Under the pieces are notes generated by a model, which made no database searches, was not told the origin of the DNA, and worked only from the letters and a program-made list of their open reading frames with translations. A stretch of 64,000 nt of DNA from Candidatus Omnitrophota bacterium (GTDB taxonomy: Bacteria > Omnitrophota > Gorgyraeia > Gygaellales > Profunditerraquicolaceae). The position numbers were made by a program, and so were the translations under genes. Below, piece after piece: positions 1,868-50,072 of the stretch (position 1 is its first letter; each line of letters begins with the position of its first letter). Location: NCBI GenBank assembly GCA_026387335.1, contig JAPLLX010000003.1, positions 138,230-202,229 of the forward strand, given 5' to 3'.

Positions 1868-1923
1868 AATGAACTAATAATTTTAGCATAATCCAGCGCT
1901 AAATCAACTAAAAACTGCCAGTA

Positions 1924-5760: not shown

Positions 5761-6842
5761 TTTAAGTACTCCTTTTCGGTTTCTAGAACCATCTTTTCTT
5801 GAGAAAAGTTATTTTGGATAAAATCCTGAGCCTCTTTTCCCAATTCCAGCCTCTTAGCCGGATCATTTAACAAAGTTAAAATTGCCTGCGCTAAAGCAGG
5901 GCTATCAGCAGGCTCAACCAACAATCCGTTGCGGCCGTCCTGGATTAAAGTTTTAATGCCCCCGACATTTGAGCCGATGACGGCCTTACCCGCAGCCATC
6001 GCCTCCATAAGGGCAAGTCCCAATCCTTCCTGAAGCGAAGGCATGACAAAAATATCCGTGACCGCTAAGGCGTCGGTGGTATCCGGGATCTCCGGGACAA
6101 AAAATACGCTTCTCTTGATCCCCAGATTATCAGTTAACCCGCTTAAATCTTTCTCGGTCTTACCGGTGCCCACAATAAGAAGGCTGGAGTCCGGGTATTC
6201 CCTTAAAACTATTTTCATCGCCTCGATGAGATATTTATGGCCTTTTACATCCGAAAGCCTGGCGATAATACTTATAACCGCTCCCGTATTTAACCCGAAT
6301 TTCTTCTTTATCTCTGCTTTCGGCTTAGAGGTTACCCTTTTAAACCGGTCAATATCTATCCCGTTATTGACCACGGCAATGACTTCTGCGGGAAGCTTAA
6401 AATCATCGATCAGATGCTCTTTTACCTGCTGGCTTATGGCAATGATCCCATCTCCCCAACAGGGAAAAATCCTGCGCAAAAATCTTCGCTTAAAAAAACC
6501 GTGGCAGGTAAAAATGTTTTTTACGCCGGTAAACTTTTTTAACCAACAGCCTAAAACCTGGGTGGTCCGGCTATGCGAATGTATAATATCGATCTTCTTT
6601 TCTCTTATTATAGCGGATAATTTAAATAAACTAAAAATTATCTTCGGGCTGATCTCTTTTTTAGTTTTTAGGGGAACGGGGATACTTATTATCCCGGCTT
6701 CCTTAAATTTAGAGCTAAGTTCTCCGCCGGAAGAAGCGATATATATATTATGCCCTCTTTTCTTTAACCCGCAAGCAAGAGTAAATACGTAACTGGTTAT
6801 GCCTCCGACATTAAGATGGTTGGTTATAAATAGGATATTCAT
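5739..6842 (-). CDS. glycosyltransferase family 4
   Basis: The N-terminal FITNHLNVGGITSYV and C-terminal EGLGLALMEAMAAGKAVIGSNVGGIKTLIQDGRNGLLVEP form the GT4 EX7E region. Confidence 0.8.
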   Translation of the reverse strand: MNILFITNHLNVGGITSYVFTLACGLKKRGHNIYIASSGGELSSKFKEAGIISIPVPLKTKKEISPKIIFSLFKLSAIIREKKIDIIHSHSRTTQVLGCWLKKFTGVKNIFTCHGFFKRRFLRRIFPCWGDGIIAISQQVKEHLIDDFKLPAEVIAVVNNGIDIDRFKRVTSKPKAEIKKKFGLNTGAVISIIARLSDVKGHKYLIEAMKIVLREYPDSSLLIVGTGKTEKDLSGLTDNLGIKRSVFFVPEIPDTTDALAVTDIFVMPSLQEGLGLALMEAMAAGKAVIGSNVGGIKTLIQDGRNGLLVEPADSPALAQAILTLLNDPAKRLELGKEAQDFIQNNFSQEKMVLETEKEYLNCLSVKD

Positions 6843-14611: not shown

Positions 14612-15484
14612 TCAGGCATGCGGATGGGCCTTATCGTAAACGCTCTTTAGCCTATCGGTTGTTAAATGCGTGTAAATCTGCGTAGAGGACAGGTTCGCGT
14701 GCCCCAACAACTCTTGTACTGTACGCAAATCCGCTCCCCTGTTCAATAAGTGCGTGGCAAAAGAATGCCGGAAGGTATGGGGAGAGACTCCCCGGGCAAT
14801 GCCGGCGCCCTTTAAATACTTCTCCACTATATTGCGTACGCCTCTGGTAGAGATCCGTTTACCGTTCTTATTCAAAAATAAAGCGGTACTTTGCTTTTTT
14901 CTTTTATCCAGATACTTTCTGATGGCGTTTAAAGCCGCGTCGCCTATGGGCACGACCCTTTCTTTTTTTCCTTTTCCAAAAGCCTTAACTACGCCGGATA
15001 TAAAATCTACATCCTCAATACTTAAAGAGACCAGCTCCGATATCCTTAAACCGCTGGAATAAAAAGTTTCCAGTATCGCCCGGTCGCGTAAACCAAATTC
15101 ATCCTTTTCATTTTTGGCAAAAGCGGACTCGATCAATCTTGCTACTTCTTCTTCGGTCATAAAAGAAGGTAGATGCTTATCCAACTTGGGGCTAGAGAGC
15201 ATAAGAATAGGATTGGTTTTAATATACCCTTCGCGGCTAAGGAACCTAAAAAAACTGCGTAGCGCGGATAAGTGCCGGCCAACGCTTCTATTCCCCAAGC
15301 TCTTCTCTTTTAAAACCGCCAGGTATTTTCTTAGAAGCAGGTAATCTATTTTATCCAGGCTAAGCTCGCCGCAGAATTTGCTGAAATCCTTTAAATCCAC
15401 CTTATAATTTATTAAGGTGTGCTGCGAATAATTCTTCTCGATCTCCATATAACGCATGAATCTTTCAATGTATTTATCCATCAT
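14612..15484 (-). CDS. tyrosine recombinase XerC/XerD
   Basis: The C-terminal HTFRHSFATHLLNRGADLRTVQELLGHANLSSTQIYTH contains the catalytic R, H and Y. Confidence 0.85.
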   Translation of the reverse strand: MMDKYIERFMRYMEIEKNYSQHTLINYKVDLKDFSKFCGELSLDKIDYLLLRKYLAVLKEKSLGNRSVGRHLSALRSFFRFLSREGYIKTNPILMLSSPKLDKHLPSFMTEEEVARLIESAFAKNEKDEFGLRDRAILETFYSSGLRISELVSLSIEDVDFISGVVKAFGKGKKERVVPIGDAALNAIRKYLDKRKKQSTALFLNKNGKRISTRGVRNIVEKYLKGAGIARGVSPHTFRHSFATHLLNRGADLRTVQELLGHANLSSTQIYTHLTTDRLKSVYDKAHPHA

Positions 15485-15487
15485 ATA

Positions 15488-17464
15488 CTATTCTTTATCC
15501 TCCGGAAGAGCGCGCGAGGTAAAAGTACACTTGGGGAAATTAGAACAACCGTAGAAGAATCCACGCACAGAGCGGCGCTCGATCAATTCTCCGCCGCAAC
15601 CCTCCTGCGGGCACTTTACGCCGCTAGTGATAGATTTAGAGTTTTTACAGGTCGGGAAATCCGAACAACTTAAAAATTTTCCTCTCCTGCCCCACTTAAC
15701 GATCATGGGTTTGCCGCACTGAGCGCAAACCTGATCCGTAGTGATGACTTCCTTTTTAATATTTCCTTGAGCAAACTCCAGGCTCACCTTAAAAGGAGCG
15801 TAAAAGTCTTCTAAGACCTTAAGCCGCTTAAGTGTGCCCTCTTCAATCTGGTCCAGCTCTTCCTCCATGGCGGCGGTAAACTTTACATCAATGATCTTAG
15901 GAAAATATTCAACTAATAGATCACTCACCTTAAAACCTAACTCCGTAGGATTCAGGTAACCTTTAATCCGGCGGGTGTAATCGCGCAATATCAGGGTATA
16001 AATTATCGGCGCATAGGTCGAGGGCCGGCCAATACCATCTTCTTCCAGCGCTTTGATCAAGGAGCTATCCGAATAGCGGGCAGGCGGCTTGGTAAAATGC
16101 TGCGAAGGTAAAAGCTTTAATAACTCTAATAATTCGCCCTCTGCTAAAACCGGTAGCACATTCTTTTTTTCCTTTTCTTGCTCCTCAGCGTTCTCCTCAT
16201 CGATCTTAGCGTAGGCCGCCATAAACCCGCTAAAAATAAGCGTGCTTCCTGAAGCGTTAAATTGATATTTACCCGCTTCTATGGCCACCGAAGTAACGGC
16301 GTATATAGCCGGTTTCATTTGGCTGGCTACAAACCGGTTATAAATTAACTCATACAATTTAATCTGATCTGGAGTTAAGAAATTTTTCAGGCCCTGCGGG
16401 TGACGCGAAACAAAAGTCGGGCGGATCGCCTCATGCGCTTCCTGAGCCAACTTCTTAACCTTATAGTAATTCGGCGCCTCCGGAAGATGCTCTTTACCAA
16501 AACTTCTGGCGATATAATCGCGCACTTCAGAAATAGCTTCAGGCGCGACCCGCGGAGAATCCGTACGCATATAAGTGATTAAGCCGACCGGGTTATCCGT
16601 ACCTATATCAATACCTTCATAAAGCTGTTGGGCTATAGACATTGTCCGGTTGGCGTTAAACCTTAAACGGTTAAAGGCATCCTGCTGCAGAGTGCTGGTA
16701 ATGAAAGGCGCGTCCGGGTAACGCTTCTTTTCGCTCTTTTTTACCTGGGCGACCCGGAATTGTTGCGTTTGAATATCGGCGCATAATCTATCCGCTTCTT
16801 CCTTATTCTTGATCTCGGCTTTCTGGGAATCTATTTTATCCAGCTTAGCGCTAAATTCGCTATCGGCCTTGGCCAATTGCGCCTCAATCTCCCAGTATTC
16901 CCGCGCAACAAATTTCTGGATCTCTCTCTCCCTTTCGATAATCAATCGCAGGGCCACTGACTGGACGCGCCCGGCGCTTAAGCCCCGGGCGATTTTTTTC
17001 CAGAGCAAAGGACTTAAAAAATAACCCATTATTCTGTCTAATATGCGCCTGCCTATCTGAGCCTCTACCATATTTAAGTCAAATTCCCGCGGGTGTTTGA
17101 ACGCCTCTTTAACCGCGCTGGGGGTAATTTCATGGAAAGTAACGCGCAGAATATTTGCTTTATTTAAAATTCTCTCTTTAATCTGCCAGCCGATGGCCTC
17201 GCCTTCCCGGTCAGGATCGGTAGCGATATACACGGTTTCTTTGCCTTTAGCTTCTTTTTTAAGTTCAGTTACGACCTTTTGCCTGCCGGTTAAAGTCACG
17301 TATTCCGGTTCAAATTTATTTTCTATATCCACCCCGAGTTTTTTTTGCGGCAGGTCGATAATATGCCCCATAGAAGATACGACGCTGAAACTTTCCCCTA
17401 AGATCTTACCTATGGTTTTAGCCTTAGTCGGAGATTCAACAATAACCAAACCTTTTTTCTTCAT
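15488..17464 (-). CDS. topA: DNA topoisomerase I
   Basis: A Toprim/TopA core is followed by C-terminal Cys4 zinc ribbons (CAQCGKPM...C..C; CPQEGCGG...C..C). Confidence 0.9.
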   Translation of the reverse strand: MKKKGLVIVESPTKAKTIGKILGESFSVVSSMGHIIDLPQKKLGVDIENKFEPEYVTLTGRQKVVTELKKEAKGKETVYIATDPDREGEAIGWQIKERILNKANILRVTFHEITPSAVKEAFKHPREFDLNMVEAQIGRRILDRIMGYFLSPLLWKKIARGLSAGRVQSVALRLIIEREREIQKFVAREYWEIEAQLAKADSEFSAKLDKIDSQKAEIKNKEEADRLCADIQTQQFRVAQVKKSEKKRYPDAPFITSTLQQDAFNRLRFNANRTMSIAQQLYEGIDIGTDNPVGLITYMRTDSPRVAPEAISEVRDYIARSFGKEHLPEAPNYYKVKKLAQEAHEAIRPTFVSRHPQGLKNFLTPDQIKLYELIYNRFVASQMKPAIYAVTSVAIEAGKYQFNASGSTLIFSGFMAAYAKIDEENAEEQEKEKKNVLPVLAEGELLELLKLLPSQHFTKPPARYSDSSLIKALEEDGIGRPSTYAPIIYTLILRDYTRRIKGYLNPTELGFKVSDLLVEYFPKIIDVKFTAAMEEELDQIEEGTLKRLKVLEDFYAPFKVSLEFAQGNIKKEVITTDQVCAQCGKPMIVKWGRRGKFLSCSDFPTCKNSKSITSGVKCPQEGCGGELIERRSVRGFFYGCSNFPKCTFTSRALPEDKE

Positions 17465-18552
17465 TAAGAATTCCTCACAAATTGTTTACCCGGAAGTTGT
17501 TTAATTAATTTCCTGAACTGCAGATTTAAAAGGATGCCGGAAATTTCAGAAACATCCATATTCGCTTTCTCGATCAAATCATCCAGGGTTACTGCTTGCG
17601 GCGTTATTAATTCATAAAGCCTATTTTCTTTTTCATTGCCGGAATTGCGCCTTAAATTCCTATTCTCTTTCGGCACAGGGGCGGCAGTAAAACTAAATTC
17701 TTCCAATATATCCGTAACCTGGGTAACTAATTTCGCTCCCTGCTTAAGCAATTCATTGGTGCCAAAAGAAGATGCTGAATCAATTTTCCCGGGTAGGGCG
17801 AATACCTCTCTTCCCTGTTCCAGCGCGAAATCCGCGGTAATCAGGGCCCCGCTGTTCTTAGCCGCTTCGGCGACCAAGACTCCCAGGCTTAAACCGCTGA
17901 TAACCCGGTTACGCCGGGGGAAATTCTCCTTCAACGGCTTTTCGTTTAACGGAAATTCGGAGATTACCGCTCCCGAGCGCGAGATCTCCTCGGAAAATTC
18001 TTTATTCTCCGGAGGATAAATATTATTAAACCCGCTACCCATGACGGCTATAGTCCGGCCGCCTGCCTTTAACGCGGCCCGATGAGCAGAAGTATCTATT
18101 CCGCGGGCCATCCCCGAAACAATCGTAAATCCAGCGGCTGCCAATTCAGAGGCGAATTTGCCAGCCGCGCTTAATCCGTAGAAACTGGCCTGCCGCGAAC
18201 CGACAATACCTATGGATAGAGAATCTTGCGGCTTGATATCGCCTTTTACATAAAGCACGATAGGCAAACCCGGAATATTTTTTAAATTTTCCGGGTAAGC
18301 CGCATCTTCAAAGGTAATAATCTTTAAGGAAAGCTTACGGCAGAGGTCTAATTCTTTGGCTAAATCTTCTTTTTTAAAAGAATTTATCCGGCTGGCTAAA
18401 TTTTCACCGATCCCGGATACCGCGACCAGTTTTTCTACTGTCGCTTCGAATATTTCCTGCGGCGAGCCAAAATTTTCCAGCAGGTTTTTTAGCCGAACGC
18501 TGCCTATACTACCTGCCATGTTTAAAGCAACCAATGCCTCTAATCTTGTCAT
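17464..18552 (-). CDS. dprA: DNA processing protein DprA/Smf
   Basis: GIVGSRQASFYGLSAAGKFASELAAAGFTIVSGMARGIDTSAHRAAL is the DprA Rossmann signature. Confidence 0.85.
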   Translation of the reverse strand: MTRLEALVALNMAGSIGSVRLKNLLENFGSPQEIFEATVEKLVAVSGIGENLASRINSFKKEDLAKELDLCRKLSLKIITFEDAAYPENLKNIPGLPIVLYVKGDIKPQDSLSIGIVGSRQASFYGLSAAGKFASELAAAGFTIVSGMARGIDTSAHRAALKAGGRTIAVMGSGFNNIYPPENKEFSEEISRSGAVISEFPLNEKPLKENFPRRNRVISGLSLGVLVAEAAKNSGALITADFALEQGREVFALPGKIDSASSFGTNELLKQGAKLVTQVTDILEEFSFTAAPVPKENRNLRRNSGNEKENRLYELITPQAVTLDDLIEKANMDVSEISGILLNLQFRKLIKQLPGKQFVRNS

Positions 18553-18568
18553 ATATTTAACGCGCCGC

Positions 18569-19081
18569 TTATTGTTTATTCCCCGGTAATAATTTTAAGA
18601 TTTTAGCAACTACTTCCTTTACCGAAAACTTGGATGTATCTATTGTTTTATCGGCTAAAGCGTAATAAGGCGAGCGCAGCTTAAGCAGCAACCCTATTCT
18701 TTCTTTAGGGTTCTTAACATTAAGCAGCGGCCTGTGCGTTGAGCCGGAGACCCTTTTCAATATTACCGCGGGCTCTGCGCTCAAGCAGATGACTATACCG
18801 CTCTTTTTCATAATCTTAATATTTCTTTCATCAATGACTATTCCTCCGCCACAGCCGACCACAAAGTTCTTTTCTTTGGCTACTTCTTTTAACACCTTAC
18901 TTTCTACGCGCCTGAAATACGGTTCGCCAGCCTGAGCGAAGATATCCGGAATACTCCTTCTCTCTTTTAACTCAATTAGTTCATCCAGGTCAACAAACCG
19001 CCATTTCTTATTTTTGGCCAGTTCGCTTCCTACGGCGCTTTTGCCTGTGCCCATAAATCCGACTAAATAAATATTCTTCAT
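18569..19081 (-). CDS. aroK: shikimate kinase
   Basis: MKNIYLVGFMGTGKSAVG is a P-loop, and the length is 170 aa. Confidence 0.8.
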   Translation of the reverse strand: MKNIYLVGFMGTGKSAVGSELAKNKKWRFVDLDELIELKERRSIPDIFAQAGEPYFRRVESKVLKEVAKEKNFVVGCGGGIVIDERNIKIMKKSGIVICLSAEPAVILKRVSGSTHRPLLNVKNPKERIGLLLKLRSPYYALADKTIDTSKFSVKEVVAKILKLLPGNKQ

Positions 19082-19088
19082 TTTAATT

Positions 19089-19165
19089 TAGGGACGGTTC
19101 TCAAGACAATCTTAAACTGTCCCCTAATCAGGGACACTTTTCCTTTGAGTTGAGAACCGTCCCTA
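19089..19165. other. nested perfect inverted-repeat hairpin element between aroK and spoVG
   Basis: tagggacggttctcaa (19089-19104) is the exact reverse complement of ttgagaaccgtcccta (19150-19165). An inner 6-bp hairpin tgtccc/gggaca lies at 19118-19136. Confidence 0.6.
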
Positions 19166-32303: not shown

Positions 32304-32512
32304 AATATTTATTATCTTATAGATATTTTGCTTGAGGGTATTGTTAAGCGTGCAATTAGAAATTTTTCGGCAATTGTGTGCAAGGCTTTACGGCGAGTGT
32401 AGACAATACCCTTAAAGCGTGAGGAACCTTGCGCTGCCGGAGCGAGCCGTAAACCGTAGCACACGGCGAAAAATTTCGCACGCGGACAATACCCGAAAAG
32501 CAAAATATCATA
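32304..32512 (-). ncRNA. structured intergenic region (candidate 5' leader / small RNA) upstream of cca
   Basis: One 9-mer gggtattgt (32336) is complementary to two copies of acaataccc (about 32416 and 32484). The additional hairpin gcgaaa/tttcgc supports alternative pairings. Confidence 0.3.
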
Positions 32513-32923
32513 TTATTTATCTTGATTGAATGTCGCTGACTGCTTGATGATCTCATCAGCGACAAATATAGGCGCGTGCGCCCTTACTGCCAGCGCTACG
32601 CTATCAGACGGCCGGGCATCAATGATCTTTTCAACTCCGGATGCGGTCTTTAAGACTACTTTAGCGTGAAAGGTATTCTCTTCCAGTTTATCAATGATGA
32701 TCCTTTCAATGGTCGCGTCCAGATAACCTATTGTGTTATGCAATAAATCGTGAGTCAGGGGGCGCGGAGGCTGGAACCCGCTTAATTTTAACTTTATCGC
32801 CGAGGCCTCGGCCAAACCTATAACAATGGGTAAGACCCGCTCTCCGTTTTTTTCCCTTAAAACAATAAGCTGGTCATGCCTCTTTTCATCAATGACAATT
32901 TTATTTAATTCCATCTCGATCAT
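32513..32923 (-). CDS. bifunctional nuclease (DUF151/BFN) family protein
   Basis: LPIVIGLAEASAIKLKLSGFQPPRPLTHDL is the DUF151 signature. Confidence 0.7.
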   Translation of the reverse strand: MIEMELNKIVIDEKRHDQLIVLREKNGERVLPIVIGLAEASAIKLKLSGFQPPRPLTHDLLHNTIGYLDATIERIIIDKLEENTFHAKVVLKTASGVEKIIDARPSDSVALAVRAHAPIFVADEIIKQSATFNQDK

Positions 32924-37145: not shown

Positions 37146-38441
37146 CTAGCTAGCTTTTGCTCCTATATCCTTCCTATAATGCATCCCTTCAAAACTAATT
37201 TCCTTAACTGCCGCATAAGTATTATTAATTGCTTCTTTTATAGTTTTACCTAAGCCAGTTACTCCCAGGACCCTTCCGCCGCTAGTTAAATATTCTGTTT
37301 CCTGCTTCTGTCCCACATCATTTACTATCCGAGACTTAGTCCCGGCATGAAAAACTACCACATCTTTCATCTTAGCCACTTCATCCAATCCAAAAATTTC
37401 TTTATTCTTTTCATAATTTCCCGGATATCCGCCGGCGGCAGCTACAACGCAGACGCAGACGCGGCTATCCCATTCCAAATTCCTTACGCGGTTTAATTTC
37501 TGCTCAGTTGTTGCCAACATTATTTCCAGCAGATCCGATTTTAACCTGGGTAAAATCGCCTGGGTTTCCGGGTCGCCGAAACGCACATTAAACTCTAAAG
37601 TCTTTGGACCATCTTTAGTCAACATTATCCCGGCGTATAAGACTCCCCGGTAATCTATACCCTCTTTGACTAAACCGTCAATCGTGCGATAAATAACTTT
37701 ATCCAGGATTTCTTTAAATAATTCTTCTGTGACTATTGGCGCAGGTGAATATACGCCCATACCGCCGGTATTTGGGCCCTGGTCATTATCAAAAACTCTC
37801 TTATGATCCTGGGCTGAGGCTAAGGCAATTACTTCTTTGGAATCGGTGATTACTAAAATAGAGGCTTCCTGGCCCTGAAGGCACTCCTCAATTATAACTT
37901 TGTTGCCGGCAGCGCCAAAAACTTTATCCTGCATTATTGACTCAACCGCTTTTTTGGCTTCATCAACTGTTTTAGCTACCACTACACCTTTACCCGCAGC
38001 TAAACCATCGGCTTTAACTACGCAAGGGCTGCCAATCTTCTCTATATATTTCTTGGCCGCATCGGGATTATCAAAAACTTTAAATTCGGCAGTCGGCACT
38101 TTATATTTAGCCATCAGCTCTTTGGAAAAAACTTTGCTTGCTTCCATACGCGCCGCGGATTTATTCGGGCCGAATATCTTTAATTTATATTTAGCGAATT
38201 CATCAACAATTCCTAATGAAAGCGGGACTTCCGGCCCCACAACCGTTAAATCTATTTTTTCTTTTCTGGCAAAATCCAATAGTCCCGGAATATCATCAGC
38301 CTTAATATTAACGCATTCGGCGATTTGCGCGATTCCGGCATTGCCCGGCGCGCAAAATAACTTATCGCAGAGCTTGGACTGCGCAATCTTCCAGACTAGC
38401 GCATGTTCCCTGCCTCCAGATCCAATCACTAATATTTTCAT
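37146..38441 (-). CDS. purD: phosphoribosylamine--glycine ligase
   Basis: MKILVIGSGGREHAL is an ATP-grasp domain in PurD context. Confidence 0.9.
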   Translation of the reverse strand: MKILVIGSGGREHALVWKIAQSKLCDKLFCAPGNAGIAQIAECVNIKADDIPGLLDFARKEKIDLTVVGPEVPLSLGIVDEFAKYKLKIFGPNKSAARMEASKVFSKELMAKYKVPTAEFKVFDNPDAAKKYIEKIGSPCVVKADGLAAGKGVVVAKTVDEAKKAVESIMQDKVFGAAGNKVIIEECLQGQEASILVITDSKEVIALASAQDHKRVFDNDQGPNTGGMGVYSPAPIVTEELFKEILDKVIYRTIDGLVKEGIDYRGVLYAGIMLTKDGPKTLEFNVRFGDPETQAILPRLKSDLLEIMLATTEQKLNRVRNLEWDSRVCVCVVAAAGGYPGNYEKNKEIFGLDEVAKMKDVVVFHAGTKSRIVNDVGQKQETEYLTSGGRVLGVTGLGKTIKEAINNTYAAVKEISFEGMHYRKDIGAKAS

Positions 38442-38449
38442 ATTTAAAA

Positions 38450-38486
38450 GTCATTGCGAGTCCGCCATAGGCGGACGAAGCAATCC
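38450..38486. repeat. small palindromic hairpin element (copy a), immediately downstream of the cupin gene stop
   Basis: gtcattgcgag-TCCGCC-ata-GGCGGA-cgaagcaatcc. An inverted copy with compensatory stem changes lies at 40624-40659. Confidence 0.55.
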
Positions 38487-38491
38487 CTGAT

Positions 38492-38806
38492 TTAAGCCTT
38501 TATCATTACTAAAAGCATCTTAAAACGCTCTACAGCTTTTAAAGAATGCGTCTTATTCGCCGGCATAATAATTACTTCACCTGCTTTTAGGTTATGCTGC
38601 TTTCCGGCAATAGTAATTTCTGCCTTGCCGTCAAAGATATATACTAACGCGTCAAATGGCGCGGTATGTTCACTCAACCCCTGTCCCTTATCAAAGGCAA
38701 ACAAGGTCACCGTGCCCTTATCTTTCCTGATGACTTCTTTGCTGACAACAGAACCACCCTGATAATCCACCAAACTCACCAAGCTCTTCGCTTCTTCAAT
38801 ATTCAT
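38492..38806 (-). CDS. cupin-domain protein
   Basis: A 104-aa ORF with two beta-motifs (G(X)5HxH-like: GLSEHTAPFDALVYIFDGKAEI; GEVIIMPANKTHSL). Confidence 0.6.
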   Translation of the reverse strand: MNIEEAKSLVSLVDYQGGSVVSKEVIRKDKGTVTLFAFDKGQGLSEHTAPFDALVYIFDGKAEITIAGKQHNLKAGEVIIMPANKTHSLKAVERFKMLLVMIKA

Positions 38807-38842
38807 ATCTTACCTTACGCGGGGTCTGTCGAGCACACTCTT

Positions 38843-38961
38843 CGCAGGGACGCGTGATTTTTCCCAGCGTGAAAAATCACGCTCGGCTACTCGACTGCGC
38901 TCTTGCTAGTTCCTTTATAGGTGGCAAACCTTGCCCGCTCCGCCTGCGTTACGCCCTGCTC
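38843..38961. repeat. 119-bp inverted repeat, arm A of an IR pair bounding a two-gene cassette
   Basis: The reverse complement aligns to 40452-40570 at ~80% identity, including an identical 30-mer gagcagggcgtaacgcaggcggagcgggca. Compensatory substitutions preserve the inner hairpin (gtgattttt/aaaaatcac versus gcgattttcc/ggaaaatcg). Confidence 0.6.
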
Positions 38962-39007
38962 AAAGTGTGTCTCGCCACCCGCTAAAGGACAACTAAGTAT
39001 TATGTCC

Positions 39008-39724
39008 CTACAAGTCCAGTCCTCTGGAACTATTTGTTAGAAATTTATTTTTTATATCTCGAATAACGATATCATTACCTTGCATTTGTTGTGGTGATAT
39101 TTCGAATTCAAATCTTGTATCGCCATTGACAATAACAAAAGCTTTACCGCTTATTACTTGACTATTTTCAGGAATCTTTACAAACCTTACTTGAATTATA
39201 TCAGATTCTTGAAGTATTTCGATTGGTTTACCTACAGCTGAATAATTGGATTGCATGCGAAAAACTCCTATATAAATAACTTCACCTTTTCCGTTTTGTT
39301 TAGCATCTGATTGCGTATCTGACATTAACAATAGCGGTTGTCTATTTTTCACGAAACAAAGCAACCCGCCAACATCCATATATCGAGTAGATACTTTTTC
39401 GTCAGATTTTATGGTAACTTCAACTTGAGCTTCCGCAGATGCTATTGATTTCTTGAGGGGATTTTCTAGTTCTTGAATTCTTTCGGCTAGTTTTTGTAAC
39501 CTCTCCTGTTCTGAACCTGTGTATTTTTCCAAAGCAATTGTTTTGAATGGTGTTAATTGGGTTTCTAATCGTTGAATTTCGGCTATTTTATCTGAATTTT
39601 CTTTTTCCAATTTCTTAATTACCCCAAGATTTATAATTATTTGGATAATAGCTATTATTAATAAAAATACTCCTGTTACTATTGCAGTTTGAACCGAAGC
39701 CTTTTGATACCATTTCTGAGCCAT
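39008..39724 (-). CDS. hypothetical membrane-anchored coiled-coil protein (AT-rich cassette gene 1)
   Basis: A 238-aa ORF with an N-terminal TM helix, a coiled-coil and a C-terminal beta-rich domain. It has no recognisable motif, and its GC is well below the flanking genes. Confidence 0.5.
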   Translation of the reverse strand: MAQKWYQKASVQTAIVTGVFLLIIAIIQIIINLGVIKKLEKENSDKIAEIQRLETQLTPFKTIALEKYTGSEQERLQKLAERIQELENPLKKSIASAEAQVEVTIKSDEKVSTRYMDVGGLLCFVKNRQPLLLMSDTQSDAKQNGKGEVIYIGVFRMQSNYSAVGKPIEILQESDIIQVRFVKIPENSQVISGKAFVIVNGDTRFEFEISPQQMQGNDIVIRDIKNKFLTNSSRGLDL

Positions 39725-39779
39725 AGTTATTTTATTTTTTCATCGTTCTAGGACTGCTTACTTCTAACTTATAAAAACT

Positions 39780-40415
39780 TCAGTTCCTTTTTACTTTAGT
39801 GCTTTTTTCTATCCTATCAAAAGTTATAGTGTTTTCTTTGCCGTCCTTAAGAAATTTCTGTTTGTAGTTATCTTTATCATAATCCTTTTTAATATCGAGT
39901 TTTTTTCCATTGAAATAATAATGAAATCTTTTCTTAATGTGGAATGGGGCTAAAATTCCAGAACCTCTATAAGAATACTCTAAACAATAACTTTTTGGCA
40001 GCAAATCGATATACGAAGCTGGAAAAACATCACCTACCTTGTCTTTATCTAATCTACCGGTTTCTACAGTTACGGTAGCATTAGCAAAAGGAGGGAAATT
40101 ACTTGTTCCCAGCCTTACCCCGCTACTATAAAAACCACTAAGATCTTCAGAGCACTTGTGTATTTCAATAACTACATTATGAAGAGAAGTATCACTGACC
40201 TCTGAAATAAATAAATCTTTATCAATCCTAGCACCTAAAGCAACATTGTATATATCGCGACTGCCATCGTTTCTAAGAATAAAGGTAAAAGAGTTATTTT
40301 TTAAGTTTTGTTCTATCTTAAGAAAAATCCGAGGGTAAAATATCAAATCAAAAATTATACTAAGTAATATAAGTATAGAAACGCCTGCAATCATAGAAAT
40401 TAAAAAAGGCTTCAT
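39780..40415 (-). CDS. hypothetical membrane-anchored protein (AT-rich cassette gene 2)
   Basis: A 211-aa ORF with an N-terminal TM helix, no recognisable motif and low GC. Confidence 0.5.
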   Translation of the reverse strand: MKPFLISMIAGVSILILLSIIFDLIFYPRIFLKIEQNLKNNSFTFILRNDGSRDIYNVALGARIDKDLFISEVSDTSLHNVVIEIHKCSEDLSGFYSSGVRLGTSNFPPFANATVTVETGRLDKDKVGDVFPASYIDLLPKSYCLEYSYRGSGILAPFHIKKRFHYYFNGKKLDIKKDYDKDNYKQKFLKDGKENTITFDRIEKSTKVKRN

Positions 40416-40451
40416 CTTATCCTCTCTTGTGGATGGCTTGGCTTAGTTTCG

Positions 40452-40570
40452 GAGCAGGGCGTAACGCAGGCGGAGCGGGCACGGTTCGCCCGCTATTTAA
40501 TAATTAGCGAGAGCGAAGCCGAGTAGCCGAGCGCGATTTTCCACGCTGGGGAAAATCGTGCGGCCCTGCG
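40452..40570. repeat. 119-bp inverted repeat, arm B (reverse complement of arm A)
   Basis: See arm A at 38843-38961. Confidence 0.6.
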
Positions 40571-40623
40571 AGAAACAAGACAAGGCAGACACAATTGATA
40601 TCTATATTTTCAAATGAGCAAGA

Positions 40624-40659
40624 GATTGCTTCGGCTGCCTATGGCAGCCTCGCAATGAC
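40624..40659. repeat. small palindromic hairpin element (copy b, inverted), immediately downstream of the SPFH gene stop
   Basis: The reverse complement gtcattgcgag-GCTGCC-ata-GGCAGC-cgaagcaatc matches copy a, with compensatory stem changes. Confidence 0.55.
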
Positions 40660-40660
40660 G

Positions 40661-41548
40661 TTATTTAGCTGGTTTTTCTTCCTTCTTCTTCAAGGGTAAA
40701 AAACCGGCCATTTCACCGATTACATTGACTAATTCCGTATTCGCCGGAACGACAATTTTTGCGTTATTCTGCAATGATTTTTCAACAGCTTCTAATTTCC
40801 GCAGCACCTGAGCATTCCCCACAAAATATTCTTCCGCTGCTTCATTGACTAGTTTAATCGCCGTTGCTTCGCCTTCAGCTTCTAAGATTCTTGCCTGCTT
40901 TATACCTTCAGCCTTTTTAATCTCGGCGCGTTTCTGTCCATCAGCAGCAGTTTCGGTGGCGGTAGCAAAATCAATTGCCGCTATTTTTTCATTCTCGGCC
41001 TTGACCACCTTATTCATTGTCTCCTGGACATCTTTAGGAGGATCGATTTCTTTTAATTCGGTCCTGACTATCTCTAAACCCCAGGTTCCGGTTTCACTGC
41101 AAAGAGTATTATGCAACTCCGCGTTAATTTTGCCTCTCTCGCTGTTCGCGGATTTTAGAGTAAGTGTACCGATAATATTTCTTAGGGTTGTGCGGGCGAG
41201 ATTTACAATCTGCCACTGGTAATTATTCACGCTATATTGCGAACTTTTTACACTTTGCTCGTCTGCCTTGACCTTAAAATAAACCTGCGCGTCAACTTTG
41301 GCATTCAGATTATCATTAGTGATGATCTCCTGCGGCTCAGCATCCACCATTTGCTCAGTTGTATTAACCTGATAAATAACTTCGATAAAAGGGAAAATCC
41401 AGTTAAACCCGGGGTTAGCAAAACGGTTATACTTCCCAAATCTTTCCACTAGGCCGCGGTGCGTAGGCCGGACAATCCTGATACCCATAAAGAAAAATAA
41501 AACTACGCCAATAATTATTGCGACTGTAACATCCATACCCACCTCCAT
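40661..41548 (-). CDS. SPFH/band-7 (stomatin/prohibitin-like) membrane protein
   Basis: An N-terminal TM segment is followed by IVRPTHRGLVERFGKY, an SPFH domain. Confidence 0.8.
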   Translation of the reverse strand: MEVGMDVTVAIIIGVVLFFFMGIRIVRPTHRGLVERFGKYNRFANPGFNWIFPFIEVIYQVNTTEQMVDAEPQEIITNDNLNAKVDAQVYFKVKADEQSVKSSQYSVNNYQWQIVNLARTTLRNIIGTLTLKSANSERGKINAELHNTLCSETGTWGLEIVRTELKEIDPPKDVQETMNKVVKAENEKIAAIDFATATETAADGQKRAEIKKAEGIKQARILEAEGEATAIKLVNEAAEEYFVGNAQVLRKLEAVEKSLQNNAKIVVPANTELVNVIGEMAGFLPLKKKEEKPAK

Positions 41549-41572: not shown

Positions 41573-42571
41573 CTAAGCTATGCGCACTTTTTTATTGCCT
41601 TTAACAACTTCTCCGATAATCCAGGATTTTAACTTCTGGCTTTGTAGTTTTAAGATTATAGAATTTACCGACGCAGGCGTAACAATTAAAACCATGCCTA
41701 TGCCCATATTCAAGGTATGATACATTTCGCGTTCGGGTACATTACCCTTATTTTGAATAAGGCGGAATATTTTCGGCACATTCCAGGAATTTTTGTCAAT
41801 CTTAACATCCACATTACCGGGGAGGATCCTGGCGATCTTATCGTAAAAAGCTCCTCCGGTAATATGCGCGATTCCTTTGATAAATTTACTCGGTAATAAA
41901 CTTAAAACCTGTTTTACATAAATGCGCGTGGGCGTAAGCAACTCTTTACTCATCCGCTTAAGTTCGCTGGTAGAAAAAACTTTTCTCACCAATGAATAAC
42001 CGTTGGAATGAATTCCACTTGATTCTAAGCCAATAACCACATCGCCTGCCTGAATGCGGCTTCCGTCAATAATTTTATCCCGCTCAACCACTCCTACGCA
42101 AAACCCGGCAATATCATATTCTCCTGGCCTGTACATCCCGGGCATCTGCGCGGTCTCTCCGCCAATCAGAGAACAACCGGACTGAATACAGCCGTCGTTA
42201 ATGCCTTTTACGACGTCTATTAATACTTCTTCCTTAACTGTGCTGTGAGCGATGTAGTCCAGGAAAAATAACGGCTCAGCGCCCGCGCAGAGAATATCAT
42301 TCACATTCATCGCCACGGCGTCAATGCCTACGCTATCGTGCTTATTCACTAATCCCGCTATTTTTAATTTTGTGCCTACGCCGTCGCTTGAGGAGACCAG
42401 AACCGGATTTTTATATTTATTCTTATCCAGCTTAAAGAAACTACCAAACCCGCCGATATCTTTTAAAACTTCTGCCCGAAAAGATTTTCTAACCAATGGC
42501 TGGAGTTTAGATTTAAACGCGCTTGCGCTGTCTATATCCACCCCTGACTTCTTATAAGTTACTCTTTTCAT
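41573..42571 (-). CDS. purM: phosphoribosylformylglycinamidine cyclo-ligase (AIR synthetase)
   Basis: MKRVTYKKSGVDIDSA...DGVGTK...GGETAQMPG matches PurM. The start is trimmed so that it overlaps the purF stop as ATGA. The track ORF extends to 42673. Confidence 0.9.
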   Translation of the reverse strand: MKRVTYKKSGVDIDSASAFKSKLQPLVRKSFRAEVLKDIGGFGSFFKLDKNKYKNPVLVSSSDGVGTKLKIAGLVNKHDSVGIDAVAMNVNDILCAGAEPLFFLDYIAHSTVKEEVLIDVVKGINDGCIQSGCSLIGGETAQMPGMYRPGEYDIAGFCVGVVERDKIIDGSRIQAGDVVIGLESSGIHSNGYSLVRKVFSTSELKRMSKELLTPTRIYVKQVLSLLPSKFIKGIAHITGGAFYDKIARILPGNVDVKIDKNSWNVPKIFRLIQNKGNVPEREMYHTLNMGIGMVLIVTPASVNSIILKLQSQKLKSWIIGEVVKGNKKVRIA

Positions 42572-44013
42572 TTTATAATTTCTCCTTGGCCACAACAATG
42601 CGTCTCCAGCGAAAATTTTCCCTGCCTCTTCTCTGCCCTTACCGGATATTTTCCGGTCCAACAGGCAGCGCAATTCCCGATTCCGGAATTTTTAAAACAA
42701 CCCAGCATCCCCCCGAGGCTTAAATACCCCAGGCTATCCACTTCCATATACTGCCGGATTTTATCTAGCGATTCGTATTTATTGGCGATTAATTCGCTGG
42801 TTTTATGGAAATCAATCCCGTAAAAGCAGGGAAAGCGGTGCGGCGGACAAGATATCCTTAAATGCACTTCTTTAACTCCCGCTTTACGCAAATTGCGCAC
42901 GCGAATCTTGGAAGTTGTTCCGCGCACGATAGAATCATCAACCACGATGATCCGTTTTCCTTTTAGAACATCCCTGAGCAGGTTAAATTTAACCCGCACT
43001 CCTAAATCCCGCGTATCCTGCATCGGCTGGATAAATGTCCTGCCGACATAATGGTTACGGATGATCCCCAATTCTAACGGGATCCCCGATTCCTGAGAAT
43101 AACCCATGGCCGCTGAAAATCCTGAATCCGGAACAGGAACAACAAAATCCGCGTCCACCGGATGCTCCTGCGCAAGTTGGCTGCCTAATTTCCGCCTGAC
43201 TGAATGCACGGTCTCTCCGAAAACAACTGAATCCGGACGGGAAAAATAAACGTGCTCAAAGGTGCAGAAGGCGTGTTTATTGGAATGTAATTCTTTAGGT
43301 TTAATTGACCTTAAACCCGTGTCATTAATGATAACGATTTCGCCGGGTTCAATATCGCGGATATATTTAGCGCCGACTAAATCAAAGGCGCAGGTCTCTG
43401 AAGCTAAGACCCAGGAATTACCCAGCTTGCCTAAAGATAAGGGCCGAAAACCATACGGGTCCCTTATGCCGATAAGGCTGTTATCCGCGATCATAACTAA
43501 AGAATAAGCGCCTTTAATCCTTCTTAAGGCGTAAATAAGGCTATCTTCCAGATTGCGCAATTTGGCCCGGGCCATAAGATGAATAATTATTTCGGAATCG
43601 GTTGTAGTCTGAAAAATTGAACCGGTCTTTTCCAAATACTGGCGCAGTTCCAGAGAATTCACCAGGTTGCCATTATGCGCGATGCAAACCGAACCCTTGG
43701 CATAATCAATTAAAAGCGGCTGGGAATTTTTTAAGACGCTTGAGCCGGTGGTAGAATAACGCACATGGCCCACAGCCATATTTCCCTTGAGCCGGGCTAA
43801 GACCGCCTCATTAAAAACATCGCTGACTAAACCCATTTCTTTATGTATGGATAAAACGCCTTTGTTATTGGCGACAATTCCGCAGGCTTCCTGGCCCCTA
43901 TGCTGTAACGCGTAGAGCCCAAGATAAGTAAGCCAACTGGCGTGTTTATTATTATTTATCCCGAATAAACCGCAATACTCCTTAGGTTCATCGTTATTAT
44001 TTTCTTTTGGCAT
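42568..44013 (-). CDS. purF: amidophosphoribosyltransferase (propeptide plus Cys1 Ntn glutaminase, PRTase, C-terminal Fe-S cysteines)
   Basis: A propeptide MPKENNNDEPKEY precedes CGLFGI...LQHRGQEA. The PRPP loop is VVDDSIVRGTTS. The C-terminal cysteines are CFKNSGIGNCAACW. Confidence 0.9.
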   Translation of the reverse strand: MPKENNNDEPKEYCGLFGINNNKHASWLTYLGLYALQHRGQEACGIVANNKGVLSIHKEMGLVSDVFNEAVLARLKGNMAVGHVRYSTTGSSVLKNSQPLLIDYAKGSVCIAHNGNLVNSLELRQYLEKTGSIFQTTTDSEIIIHLMARAKLRNLEDSLIYALRRIKGAYSLVMIADNSLIGIRDPYGFRPLSLGKLGNSWVLASETCAFDLVGAKYIRDIEPGEIVIINDTGLRSIKPKELHSNKHAFCTFEHVYFSRPDSVVFGETVHSVRRKLGSQLAQEHPVDADFVVPVPDSGFSAAMGYSQESGIPLELGIIRNHYVGRTFIQPMQDTRDLGVRVKFNLLRDVLKGKRIIVVDDSIVRGTTSKIRVRNLRKAGVKEVHLRISCPPHRFPCFYGIDFHKTSELIANKYESLDKIRQYMEVDSLGYLSLGGMLGCFKNSGIGNCAACWTGKYPVRAEKRQGKFSLETHCCGQGEIIK

Positions 44014-45421
44014 TTTTTACTCCGTTTTTTGGCTCTTTACCTAACCAACAGTATAAGCAAAGTTTATTTTCCGGCAGGCCTATCGCCGCGATCATATCCT
44101 TTAACTTCTGGTATTTTAAAGTAGTCGCTCCCAAATCTTTGTTAATCCATTCTACCATTTTTTTATGTTCGCCAGAATTTTCATTCAGGTATTTGGATAA
44201 ATTCTTGGTATCGCTTCCCGTAAGGGCCTTGATGGCTTTACGCGCCGCCAGTTCGTGGATGCTGCGGGTGGAATAATTGTATTTACAGGGAAACATTAAT
44301 GGCGGACAGGCTATCCTTAAATGCACTTCCTTGGCCCCGTTTTCTTTAAGCTTACGTATCGTATAATTTTTTAGCTGTGTGCCGCGCACAATGGAATCAT
44401 CGCAAAAAACCAGGCGTCGGCCTTTAATGATCTCCAGAATGGGGATTAATTTCATCTTGGCGATTAAATCGCGCTGCTCCTGGGTAACCGGCGTATAGCT
44501 GCGGTCATACCCGGGAGTATATTTTATTAACGGCCGGCGCAGCGGTATCCCGGATTCCATACTATAGCCTATGGCGTGGGCTGTCCCTGAATCCGGAATG
44601 CCGGCGACCATATCGGCGTCTATAGTGTCGGATTTTGCCAACATGCAGCCGCAGCGTTCCCTGGACATCTCCACATTTATATTCTCATAACAAGAAGCCG
44701 GAAATCCCGTATAAATCCATAAGAAAGAGCAGATCTGGTTAGTCTTGGCGCCTTTACGTTTTAGCTTAATCCCGGACTCATCAAGCAAAACTATTTCGCC
44801 CGGCTCAAGATACTTCACAATTTTATAACCTAAGTTTAAAAAGGCGGAGGTTTCGGTGGTCACTGCCCAATCCTTGCCTTTCTTACCGACGATTAACGGC
44901 GTTAATCCGAACCTGTCCCGGGCAGCGTAGATCCCGTCCTTATTTAATAATAATAACGAGCATGACCCTTCAATTTTAAGGAACATTTTTTCAATACCGC
45001 TGACAATATTTTTTCCGCGGATAAGCATTTTAGCGATCAGCTCGGTAAAGTTTACCCGGCCGGAGGTGACTTCGCTAAAAGACTTCCCCTCCTTAAACAG
45101 CTCTTTGGCTAACTTCTCGGCATTATCAATATACCCATTGGTAATAATGGCGAACGGCCCGAATTTGGAATTTATCACCACCGGCTGTTCGTCTCTGGCG
45201 CTGATGGCGCCTATGCCTTTAGCCCCTTCCATATTTTTATAGTCTTCGTGAAATTTAGCCTTAAACTGGCTGCCCCTGATATCGTGGATTTTGCGCTGTA
45301 ATCCTTTTCCGAATACGGCTAACCCGGCAAATTGCGTGCCCAGGTGCGAATGATAATCCGTGCCATAATATAAATCCTCAAGGCAGTGTTTCTTGGAAAT
45401 TACCCCAAATATACCGCTCAT
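43997..45421 (-). CDS. PurF paralog lacking the Ntn catalytic cysteine (glutaminase-dead amidophosphoribosyltransferase-like)
   Basis: The protein begins MSGIFGV (Ser where Cys1 is expected), and the oxyanion Arg is replaced (YHSHLGTQFAGL versus LQHRGQEA). The PRTase motif VFCDDSIVRGTQ and the C-terminal Cys cluster are retained. A strong SD (GAGGAG) and an in-frame stop sit directly upstream of the ATG. Confidence 0.7.
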   Translation of the reverse strand: MSGIFGVISKKHCLEDLYYGTDYHSHLGTQFAGLAVFGKGLQRKIHDIRGSQFKAKFHEDYKNMEGAKGIGAISARDEQPVVINSKFGPFAIITNGYIDNAEKLAKELFKEGKSFSEVTSGRVNFTELIAKMLIRGKNIVSGIEKMFLKIEGSCSLLLLNKDGIYAARDRFGLTPLIVGKKGKDWAVTTETSAFLNLGYKIVKYLEPGEIVLLDESGIKLKRKGAKTNQICSFLWIYTGFPASCYENINVEMSRERCGCMLAKSDTIDADMVAGIPDSGTAHAIGYSMESGIPLRRPLIKYTPGYDRSYTPVTQEQRDLIAKMKLIPILEIIKGRRLVFCDDSIVRGTQLKNYTIRKLKENGAKEVHLRIACPPLMFPCKYNYSTRSIHELAARKAIKALTGSDTKNLSKYLNENSGEHKKMVEWINKDLGATTLKYQKLKDMIAAIGLPENKLCLYCWLGKEPKNGVKNAKRK

Positions 45422-49752: not shown

Positions 49753-49772
49753 GGTTATAAATTACGGGGTTA

Positions 49773-50057
49773 CTGAGTCTCCGGCAAATAATGGGCATAT
49801 TGGAAGCCCGGATTTAGGACGTATGCAAGGCGCGACGACGAAGGCGTAGTCGTAGCACTACGCCGAGGAGAAGCAACGCCGCAGACGGCCGAAAGGCGGG
49901 CTTCCCTCTTACTCCTATATATATGGGCTGGCTGATTTTGGGCTGCGACTGCGTCACTCGTCCTTGGCGTAGCGCTTTGGCTACGCCGGTGTCCTCGTTC
50001 CTTGTCTCGCTCCAAAATCAGATCAGCCAATGTGTCCATTATTTGCCGGAGACTCAG
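49773..50057. mobile_element. MITE-like element: ~35-bp terminal inverted repeats flanked by a TA dinucleotide duplication
   Basis: The left end ctgagtctccggcaaataatgg (49773...) is the reverse complement of the right end ccattatttgccggagactcag (...50057). TA lies at 49771-49772 and 50058-50059. Internal 8-bp hairpins include ggcgtagt/actacgcc and ggcgtagc/gctacgcc. The element is GC-rich and has no coding capacity. Confidence 0.6.
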
Positions 50058-50072
50058 TAGGTGGGTAAATAT

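Follow-up and report, generated by a model that had tools for sequence, protein, structure and literature searches.

We analysed a 64,000-nucleotide stretch of a Candidatus Omnitrophota genome (contig JAPLLX010000003.1, positions 138,230 to 202,229; the window), in which the pur operon is interrupted between purM and purD by two inverted repeats, or arms, that enclose two AT-rich genes. The arms are copies of a dispersed, structured repeat family, which we call E. All genes of the interval lie on the minus strand, and the order is purM, an SPFH/Band 7 gene, a small hairpin, the right arm, ORF211, ORF238, the left arm, a cupin gene, another small hairpin and purD. The variable interval is bounded upstream by purM (41573-42673; AIRS and AIRS_C domains) and downstream by purD (37146-38441; GARS_A, GARS_N and GARS_C domains), both conserved with orthologues in three comparison loci, L017, L055 and L037. 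The SPFH/Band 7 gene (40661-41548; Band_7, E-value 6e-39) is tied to the 5′ end of the right repeat, and the cupin gene (38492-38806; Pfam Cupin_2, E-value 5e-10) is tied to the 5′ end of the left repeat, outside the arms, where an earlier reading of the letters alone (the sequence-only reading) had put it. That reading had also taken the arms for the termini of a non-autonomous mobile cassette, or for the marks of a repeat-mediated insertion.

An inverted-repeat search places the arms at 38842-38961 and 40452-40571, each 120 nucleotides (nt) long, aligned without gaps, 85% complementary (the earlier estimate was ~80%) and spaced 1490 nt apart; BLAST of arm against arm within the 64-kb window gives an E-value of 1e-22. 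No third copy was found in the window by BLAST, nor, even at E-values up to 10, by a profile hidden Markov model (HMM) or a covariance model. The final 30 bases of both arms are identical (TGCCCGCTCCGCCTGCGTTACGCCCTGCTC), as the sequence-only reading had noticed, and this 30-mer is also unchanged in copies from other genomes; it is therefore a feature of the family and nothing special to the window pair. The arms were correctly seen, and only their extent changes: the true unit is not ~119 but ~171 nt long, and consists of the 120-nt core and an outer stem of ~30 bp, whose sequence differs between the window copies yet still pairs. The ends of the unit read TTAGCGGG... and ...CCCGCTAA, and they covary.

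The left E (38815-38985, plus strand) holds the arm 38842-38961, points its 3′ end toward the enclosed genes, or cargo, and begins 8-11 nt from the cupin start codon. It is matched by our covariance model of the family, R1, at 38813-38987 (167 bits, E-value 2e-45) and by nhmmer at 38817-38986. The right E (40427-40598, minus strand) holds the arm 40452-40571 and also points its 3′ end toward the cargo, where it abuts the ribosome-binding site of ORF211; R1 matches it at 40424-40601 (192 bits, E-value 2e-52).

When folded, both window arms take one and the same multi-branch shape, closed by GCAGGG...CCCTGC, and the flanks lengthen this stem with different sequences in the two copies. Fold z-scores range from -3.3 to -5.2, with -3.3 and -4.7 for the left copy. 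Self-complementary matches define a U-rich hairpin, P2, in the left E (38852-38882, plus strand), with the stem GCGTGATTTTTCC / GAAAAATCACGC and the loop CCAGCGT; its counterpart in the right E (40531-40561, minus strand) follows from the fold, nhmmer and covariation. Between the arms the P2 stem changes on both sides, GCGTGATTTTTCCC..GAAAAATCACGC against GCACGATTTTCCCC..GGAAAATCGCGC, and the compensatory hairpin of the sequence-only reading is real.

We quantified the selection on this structure with a 49-pair model, made of an RNAalifold core and an outer stem derived from pairing frequencies, evaluated on 42 distinct copies. Standard pairs fill 95.6% of cells, compared with 87.6% after column shuffling and 36-47% when the partners are slid by one to three columns. 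Both-sided changes occur in 21 pairs (161 cells), where shuffles average 15.0 pairs (44.3 cells), and none of 500 shuffles reached the observed covariation score. Covariation is carried by the outer stem, by the U-rich hairpin and by a variable hairpin, one position of which shows as many as five pair types. Across the family, the outer stem (helices 1-2, ~30 bp) is 83-91% paired while its sequence differs among copies with compensatory changes, a pattern that suits a structural constraint no less well than a binding site for a transposase. P2 (helix 4) is 99.5% paired with double changes in three of its ten pairs. Three inner helices are invariant and consequently give no evidence for or against the structure. 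In diverged copies the U-rich stem is wholly swapped, to GATTTTCC/GGAAAATC, GTTTTGCC/GGCAAAAC, GGCGCG/CGCGCC, GGATTTCC/GGAAATCC or GTCCCGCC/GGCGGGAC, and the loop CCCAGCGWG is kept; a loop that persists while its stem is replaced is the signature of a hairpin recognised by its shape plus its loop. The structure of E is under selection, as had been supposed from the window pair. In three loci (L019, L031 and L037, the last at 5756-5980) an extra insert of ~20-50 nt sits exactly in the loop of the U-rich hairpin.

The family is confined to a clade of Candidatus Omnitrophota. When 185,579 species representatives were searched for an exact 20-mer of the conserved end, CCGCCTGCGTTACGCCCTGC, 13 genome contigs matched; two of the 13 carry a whole E, and both are metagenome-assembled genomes (MAGs) of Candidatus Omnitrophota. 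The other 11 are chance matches within coding sequence of unrelated phyla. A two-anchor pattern found 47 metagenome loci with E, and an nhmmer profile and the covariance model added further diverged copies, so that about 50 copies beyond the window pair were found in Omnitrophota MAGs and metagenomes; roughly, each 100-300 kb of contig holds one copy. The sequence-only reading had itself named, beforehand, the finding that would speak against its cassette, arms at dozens of unrelated intergenic sites, and this is how E is distributed. Plasmid and phage collections (searched by blastn) and viral contigs gave no match, and we rejected a plasmid or phage origin. Rfam 15 gave no match at gathering score for the whole window, and none at E-values up to 10 for either element, which rules out a known RNA family. 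Full-text literature searching on Omnitrophota repeats returned nothing relevant, and a search by hairpin sequence string returned only unrelated primer matches. Across Rfam, two annotated DNA collections and the literature search, we found no repeat family described for Omnitrophota.

E is non-coding, has no conserved open reading frame (ORF) and always lies between genes, mostly beside housekeeping genes and, at 38 of 42 sites, between co-directional ones. On the 5′ side a gene is typically close by, with its stop codon at 3-18 nt or its start codon at 8-17 nt; on the 3′ side the distance to the next gene is usually 100-340 nt. One alternative is that E is primarily a functional structured RNA, co-transcribed with its operon as a processing, stability or insulator element; in the operon transcript of the window, the convergent copies could pair over ~120 nt, and the resulting RNase III-type site could part the cargo messages from the pur messages. 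The location inside operons and the close spacing of the 5′ end are what such an RNA would show, as are the stable folds, the strong covariation of the internal hairpins and the conserved unpaired and loop nucleotides. On the C-rich strand, on which the pairs had been chosen, G.U-type cells outnumber A.C-type cells by 107 to 26, also as expected if one strand acts as RNA. The second test of the acting strand points the opposite way: in 43 of 45 copies the more stable fold is that of the G-rich strand, with a mean advantage of 8.6 kcal/mol that may reflect composition. Both orientations relative to the co-directional genes are common (25 sense, 13 antisense), and the lack of an Rfam match even at the permissive threshold also speaks against an RNA. 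A scan for intrinsic terminators found nothing at the E elements or at the small hairpins, the flanks of E being a T-run, the stem and an A-run on both strands, and promoter-like sites at E are not enriched above shuffles; a terminator or promoter role is rejected. Finally, E is present at some sites and absent from the orthologous sites of relatives, which argues against a needed function in cis. We judge a functional RNA improbable.

Comparison with relatives points to separate histories of the two window copies. The left E is 96.6% identical across 176 nt to the copy in L004, a context unrelated to the window, in which an LPG-synthase-like gene and an RNase T-WYL gene are the neighbours and nothing but E is common to both. 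The right E is 90% identical across 201 nt to the copy in L025. The left arm is thus 97% and the right arm 90% identical to copies elsewhere, the partners only 85% to each other, and the two fall in different subfamilies. At the pur locus itself, the SPFH protein is 94% identical in amino acids in L017 and L055, E comes next in both, and the right E of the window is orthologous to this solo copy, with similarity ending at 40427. (An exact-protein look-up for the SPFH protein gave no match, probably for another start codon on record.) The left E and the cupin gene form a unit that recurs in L037, where 5763-6297 aligns with window 38494-38980.

The sequence-only reading had proposed that the purM-purD interval be compared among relatives, and four different states were found. 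The window has purM-SPFH-E>-ORF211-ORF238-<E-cupin-purD, where the arrowheads mark 3′ ends. L055 has purM-SPFH-E>, ~210 nt, a 16-nt remnant of the 3′ end of an opposing E, a BamE-like gene and purD. L017 has purM-SPFH-E>-ORF235, a remnant, YGGT, nucleotidyltransferase and HEPN genes, a second remnant, a BamE fragment and purD. L037 has purM, an E (<E) with an insert, the cupin gene, three other ORFs and purD. Similarity to the window ends at 40427 for L017 and L055 and at ~38980 for L037, which are the inner (3′) ends of the two E copies. The remnants, CCTCGCCACCCGCTAA, lie at L017 1293-1308 and 2877-2892 and at L055 1901-1916, immediately before the start codons of BamE-like and YGGT accessory genes; the BamE junction is common to L017 and L055.

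Presence and absence of E also vary at two other orthologous sites. In the folate operon, L045 has folD-E>, 350 nt and metF, with a solo E, and L042 has folD-E>, a 256-aa ORF, <E and metF. In the window, the site at positions 1908-1926 is empty, and only a 16-nt spacer (TACTGGCAGTTTTTAG) parts a heptosyltransferase-like gene from the gene that follows; the orthologous site carries a solo E and a second repeat, F, in L022, and E>, a 239-aa ORF and <E in L056, in a lipopolysaccharide-core (LPS-core) operon.

These states bear directly on the cassette of the sequence-only reading, in which E, cargo and E would move whole as a composite non-autonomous transposon with the E copies as its long terminal inverted repeats. 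The arrangement does recur with different cargo at three to four loci, and the ends that point outward are always the same; at the site where L056 holds the full unit, a relative is empty; and the lack of a transposase inside is consistent with mobilisation in trans. Against these, each window arm has as its orthologue in relatives a single arm attached to the corresponding outer neighbour (SPFH-E in L017 and L055, E-cupin in L037), and the arms are closer to copies elsewhere than to each other. Relatives keep one E at both comparable sites, which makes the difference between them cargo plus one E and not a whole unit. No flanking duplication is seen, the spacers having diverged, no E-cargo-E unit was found at a second site, the arms persist singly in relatives, and the cargo occurs elsewhere without arms. 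We regard a composite transposon as very unlikely. What survives of the earlier proposal is its repeat-associated insertion, which recurs in the folate operon of L042, the LPS-core operon of L056 and the pur locus of L017; the arms are not the ends of a cassette.

By composition the enclosed genes are foreign, and they do not depend on E. ORF211 (39780-40415, minus strand) encodes 211 aa with an N-terminal hydrophobic segment, and ORF238 (39008-39724, minus strand) encodes 238 aa. Their GC contents are 0.31 and 0.33, against 0.42-0.43 for the neighbouring genes and 0.43 for the window, and enclosed ORFs at all E-pair loci have a GC content of 0.31-0.35 against 0.43-0.49 in the flanks. No Pfam or PADLOC family was found for the window cargo, in line with the earlier description of two AT-rich genes without known function, nor for any cargo at the four loci. 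Pfam, PADLOC and the structure model of ORF238 likewise gave no transposase between the window arms, as had been stated. We also rejected the cargo as a transposase, recombinase or defence protein, there being no Pfam or PADLOC match and only a helix and a PLAT/LH2-like beta-sandwich in the ORF238 model. This AlphaFold2 model (pLDDT 77.6) has a low-confidence N-terminus, a long helix and a C-terminal beta-sandwich, and its fold matches are weak (best E-value 1e-4); they weakly suggest that the sandwich resembles PLAT/LH2 membrane-binding domains.

Both genes are found elsewhere, each alone, which rules out a fixed two-gene module. ORF238 has 127 homologues, all unnamed or hypothetical; a Candidatus Omnitrophica MAG carries the exact protein, labelled hypothetical. 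On long contigs the homologues occur in a region that resembles a defence island and has nSTAND NTPase, PLD and FxsA genes, beside a GIY-YIG gene after gltX, and beside a RhuM gene between glycoside hydrolases; neither E nor a notable inverted repeat is near them in the contexts examined. ORF211 is a near-orphan single-gene module with six homologues (73-100% identity). Its DNA similarity to them (81-83%) covers the gene only (window 39788-40428), and on its upstream side the module stops where the right E has its 3′ end. Its three other contexts are rich in restriction-modification and defence-type genes, and neither E nor F occurs near the homologues there. BLAST found no links among the cargo proteins of different loci, and we rejected a relation among them. 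Besides the window, the exact ORF238 protein occurs in Logan contigs only on L014 and L015, which correspond to window 38932-40460 and 38961-40090 and are under 2 kb long. Both ends of L014 fall within the arms, and L015 stops at the inner edge of the left one, so the E repeats break short-read assemblies at the pur locus.

Close pairs of E obey a strict rule of orientation. All are convergent, with the 3′ ends face to face: four full pairs (the window, L042, L056 and L026, the last with 25 nt and nothing else between the copies) and two with remnants (L017 and L055). Searches by nhmmer and the covariance model found no tandem or divergent pair within 2 kb, and the two E copies of L037 stand 8 kb apart. 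Given the 25:13 split among solo copies, the probability of such uniform orientation is ~0.01 or less. Other sequences also join E at its 3′ end. A block of ~700 bp, comprising a CopG-type two-gene module and E, is common to L005, L020, L048 and L062, and similarity stops at the 3′ end of E. The palindromic repeat family F (~190 nt, with a fold energy of about -90 kcal/mol) occurs at 14 loci or more; in 12 of 12 loci it stands to the 3′ side of E, often abutting it. E has a polarity, with all variability at its 3′ end and close pairs only convergent.

On balance, and with somewhat more confidence than doubt, we read the window arms as independent copies of the dispersed E repeat whose convergent doublet is an insertion slot; the arms would be older than the cargo and not its carriers. 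Because solo copies orthologous to each arm exist and the cargo is found elsewhere without E, the repeats mark the slot and are not the vehicle. The E unit is a conserved multi-branch core within a ~30-bp outer stem that drifts while its pairing is kept, and the hairpin inside the core keeps the loop CCCAGCGWG although its stem may change freely. Copies are gained and lost at intergenic sites within ordinary operons and tend to form convergent doublets, 3′ end to 3′ end; they probably spread as non-autonomous mobile DNA acted on in trans. In the proposed sequence of events, the DNA between the two 3′ ends would serve as a slot of insertion and turnover. In the window, each older arm would have stayed with its outer neighbour, SPFH or cupin, and the slot in the purM-purD interval would later have received two AT-rich, horizontally acquired single-gene modules, ORF211 and ORF238. 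As the link between doublet and cargo we favour a structural hotspot: a long inverted repeat would be prone to form a hairpin or cruciform and to break at its centre, the doublet may in this way promote insertion, and repair may capture foreign DNA that separates the arms and stabilises the locus.

Several points weigh against this explanation. The step from palindrome to fragility is one that we infer. Among the 148 complete ORFs within 2.5 kb of E no transposase, recombinase or nuclease family recurs, the recurring families being housekeeping orthologues and the CopG-type antitoxin, and neither an autonomous partner element nor a trans-acting enzyme was found among the neighbours examined. 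At the empty and filled sites that we compared (window 1908-1926, L022 and L056), the spacers are too diverged to define a target-site duplication. With its highly conserved multi-branch core and covarying internal hairpins, E looks more like a functional RNA than like a miniature inverted-repeat transposable element (MITE), and the variable sequence of the outer stem would be unusual if a transposase recognised the sequence of terminal inverted repeats. The two search anchors, GGCTACTCG and GCGTTACGCCCTGC, had to be constant in the 42-copy alignment by construction, and conservation there is overstated; diverged copies found without the anchors vary in these segments. Lastly, close pairs make up ~4 of roughly 40 independent loci where a rough density predicts ~1-1.6, an enrichment that is modest by itself, and the orientation rule therefore carries most of the weight.

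Alternatively, E and the AT-rich genes could each have piled up in permissive, variable intergenic intervals, having arrived independently, and the bracketing would be a coincidence without mechanistic meaning. The small excess of close pairs, the different subfamilies of the arms and their orthology to separate solo copies fit such an origin, as do the cargo genes that travel without E elsewhere and the accumulation of several repeat families at shared sites. It does not account for the convergence of every close pair, four full and two with remnants, nor for synteny that breaks within a few bases of the 3′ ends of E. The placement of F on the 3′ side throughout and the recurrence of empty, solo and pair-plus-cargo states at independent sites also argue against it. 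We consider coincidence unlikely.

A further alternative is an unrecognised system of gene capture directed by structure, in which the folded E would serve as the recombination site, a functional analogue of the integron attC site with its cross-over at the 3′ end. The gene on the 5′ side stays linked to E and the 3′ end is a mosaic junction; structure is conserved, stem sequence is free and the loop is fixed; the cargo consists of promoterless-looking single-gene modules with gene-exact boundaries and of toxin-antitoxin-type modules; and short 3′-end remnants stand directly before accessory genes. Arguing against an attC analogue, the attC core sites RYYYAAC / GTTRRRY are absent at the ends of E in the alignments, copies occur singly or as convergent pairs and not in same-orientation arrays, the 148 neighbours include neither an integrase nor another recombinase, and the cargo genes occur elsewhere without E. 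We hold this analogue to be quite unlikely. Convergent E doublets could also be the working sites of an unrecognised structure-directed capture in Omnitrophota, by an enzyme in trans that would read the folded E through its conserved loop and sequence-free stems and cut or join at its 3′ end, a proposal that we rate as a rather slim prospect. If true, it would explain why single-gene modules with gene-exact boundaries, toxin-antitoxin modules and F all join at the 3′ end of E inside conserved biosynthetic operons.

We compared E with known repeat systems by their general features. ERIC/IRU elements of enterobacteria are ~127-nt imperfect palindromes in transcribed intergenic regions, some with internal insertions at fixed points, and no transposase is known to be associated with them. 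E resembles ERIC as an imperfect palindrome that sits within ordinary operons, in either orientation, and varies in presence among relatives, and the loop inserts of L019, L031 and L037 recall the fixed-point insertions of ERIC. However, the two have no known sequence relation, E is longer, and E has a conserved multi-branch core and an outer stem of variable sequence; convergent doublets and a 3′-end junction rule are not known from ERIC. Correia elements of Neisseria (NEMIS/CREE) are 100-155 nt long, with conserved 26-bp terminal repeats and a TA duplication. Together with the 'minimal mobile elements' of Neisseria, they share with E the inverted-end repeats inside operons, co-transcription and a variable gene content between conserved flanks, but the terminal stems of E vary in sequence and no duplication is definable.

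REP units are 20-40 nt long, number hundreds per genome and are acted on in trans by a single-copy enzyme (RAYT). E is like the REP/REPIN-RAYT and BIME systems in its structure-selected palindromes, inverted doublets and mosaic arrays with other repeats; it differs in its 171 nt, in its density of about one copy per 100-300 kb and in its neighbours, among whose 148 ORFs there is no integrase and no Y1-type or RAYT protein. MITE-flanked composites, such as integron mobilisation units, likewise have two small inverted non-autonomous repeats around passenger genes and no transposase inside, whereas the E arms belong to different subfamilies, predate the cargo and remain singly in relatives. The attC sites of integrons (57-141 nt) are also folded imperfect palindromes in which structure prevails over sequence, with a gene on one side and the junction on the other, and their cargo is similarly made of small orphan and toxin-antitoxin genes; E differs by lacking core sites, arrays and a nearby integrase, and by having a conserved centre and a variable outer stem, the reverse of attC. 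In sum, E does not have the defining features of attC sites, REP/RAYT systems, Rfam families, composite transposons or intrinsic terminators. With MITEs it shares small size, non-coding sequence, many dispersed copies and presence/absence polymorphism. We file E by its behaviour as a new repeat family of the MITE/ERIC/Correia/REPIN kind because it is small, non-coding, dispersed, polymorphic and palindromic in its fold, with no enzyme in cis, and we claim no membership in a named family.

E is unusually well structured, and its 21 doubly compensated pairs suffice to define the fold from sequence alone. The covariance model R1 can be used to annotate the family, whose copies account for contig breaks around cargo genes in short-read assemblies and flag small foreign-gene islands hidden in housekeeping operons. 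The convergent rule and the variability at one end suggest either a local recombination hotspot made by DNA structure or a site-specific, enzyme-driven process; both possibilities matter for the question of how the streamlined genomes of uncultivated bacteria take up accessory and defence-type genes.

The two small hairpins beyond the arms do not belong to E. The first (38447-38488) lies between the cupin gene and purD and reads GTCATTGCGAG-[GTCCGCC ATA GGCGGAC]-CGAAGCAATC; the second (40621-40662) lies in opposite orientation directly after the SPFH stop codon. Each is 42 nt long; they are 86% complementary in the inverted register and match much worse in the direct one, and the compensatory changes in the inner stem that the sequence-only reading described are there. 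The motif GTCATTGCGAG-N(8-30)-CGAAGCAATC is common to at least 120 viral contigs; among the viral-contig matches listed there are 159 matches with 123 distinct inner sequences, on both strands. The 503 kb of Omnitrophota sequence examined hold just two copies, both in the window. Both fit the family pattern of conserved shoulders, GTCATTGCGAG and CGAAGCAATC, around a short, variable inner stem-loop. They are members of a separate, generic and widespread hairpin family, and their symmetric placement around the region is best read as coincidence.

Other palindromes occur in the window. A solo copy of F at 32310-32520 is 82-94% identical to copies in L040, L053, L051, L057 and L059, and L037 carries an E at the orthologous site. 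A stretch of ~290 bp at 49771-50059 is a separate palindrome with 124-nt arms, 72% complementary and 41 nt apart, and with near-perfect termini (ACTGAGTCTCCGGCAAATAATGG); it has no Rfam match at gathering score and looks like another MITE-like element. A 77-nt hairpin at 19089-19165 (TAGGGACGGTTCTCAA... / ...TTGAGAACCGTCCCTA) follows just after window 15144-19078, which is orthologous to the sequence that precedes the E of L016; a different palindrome thus stands at about the same intergenic position as that E. In L005 (4000-7600), L020, L048 and L062, small same-strand ORFs (CopG-type antitoxin, HTH_17 and DUF6941) stand with several other short repeats that these loci have in common at 90-98% identity, and the region looks like a mosaic accessory region with further repeat families. 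Window 42568-45421 (minus strand) holds two adjacent, overlapping amidophosphoribosyltransferase (purF-like) paralogues, with ~32% mutual identity according to the comparison with L017.

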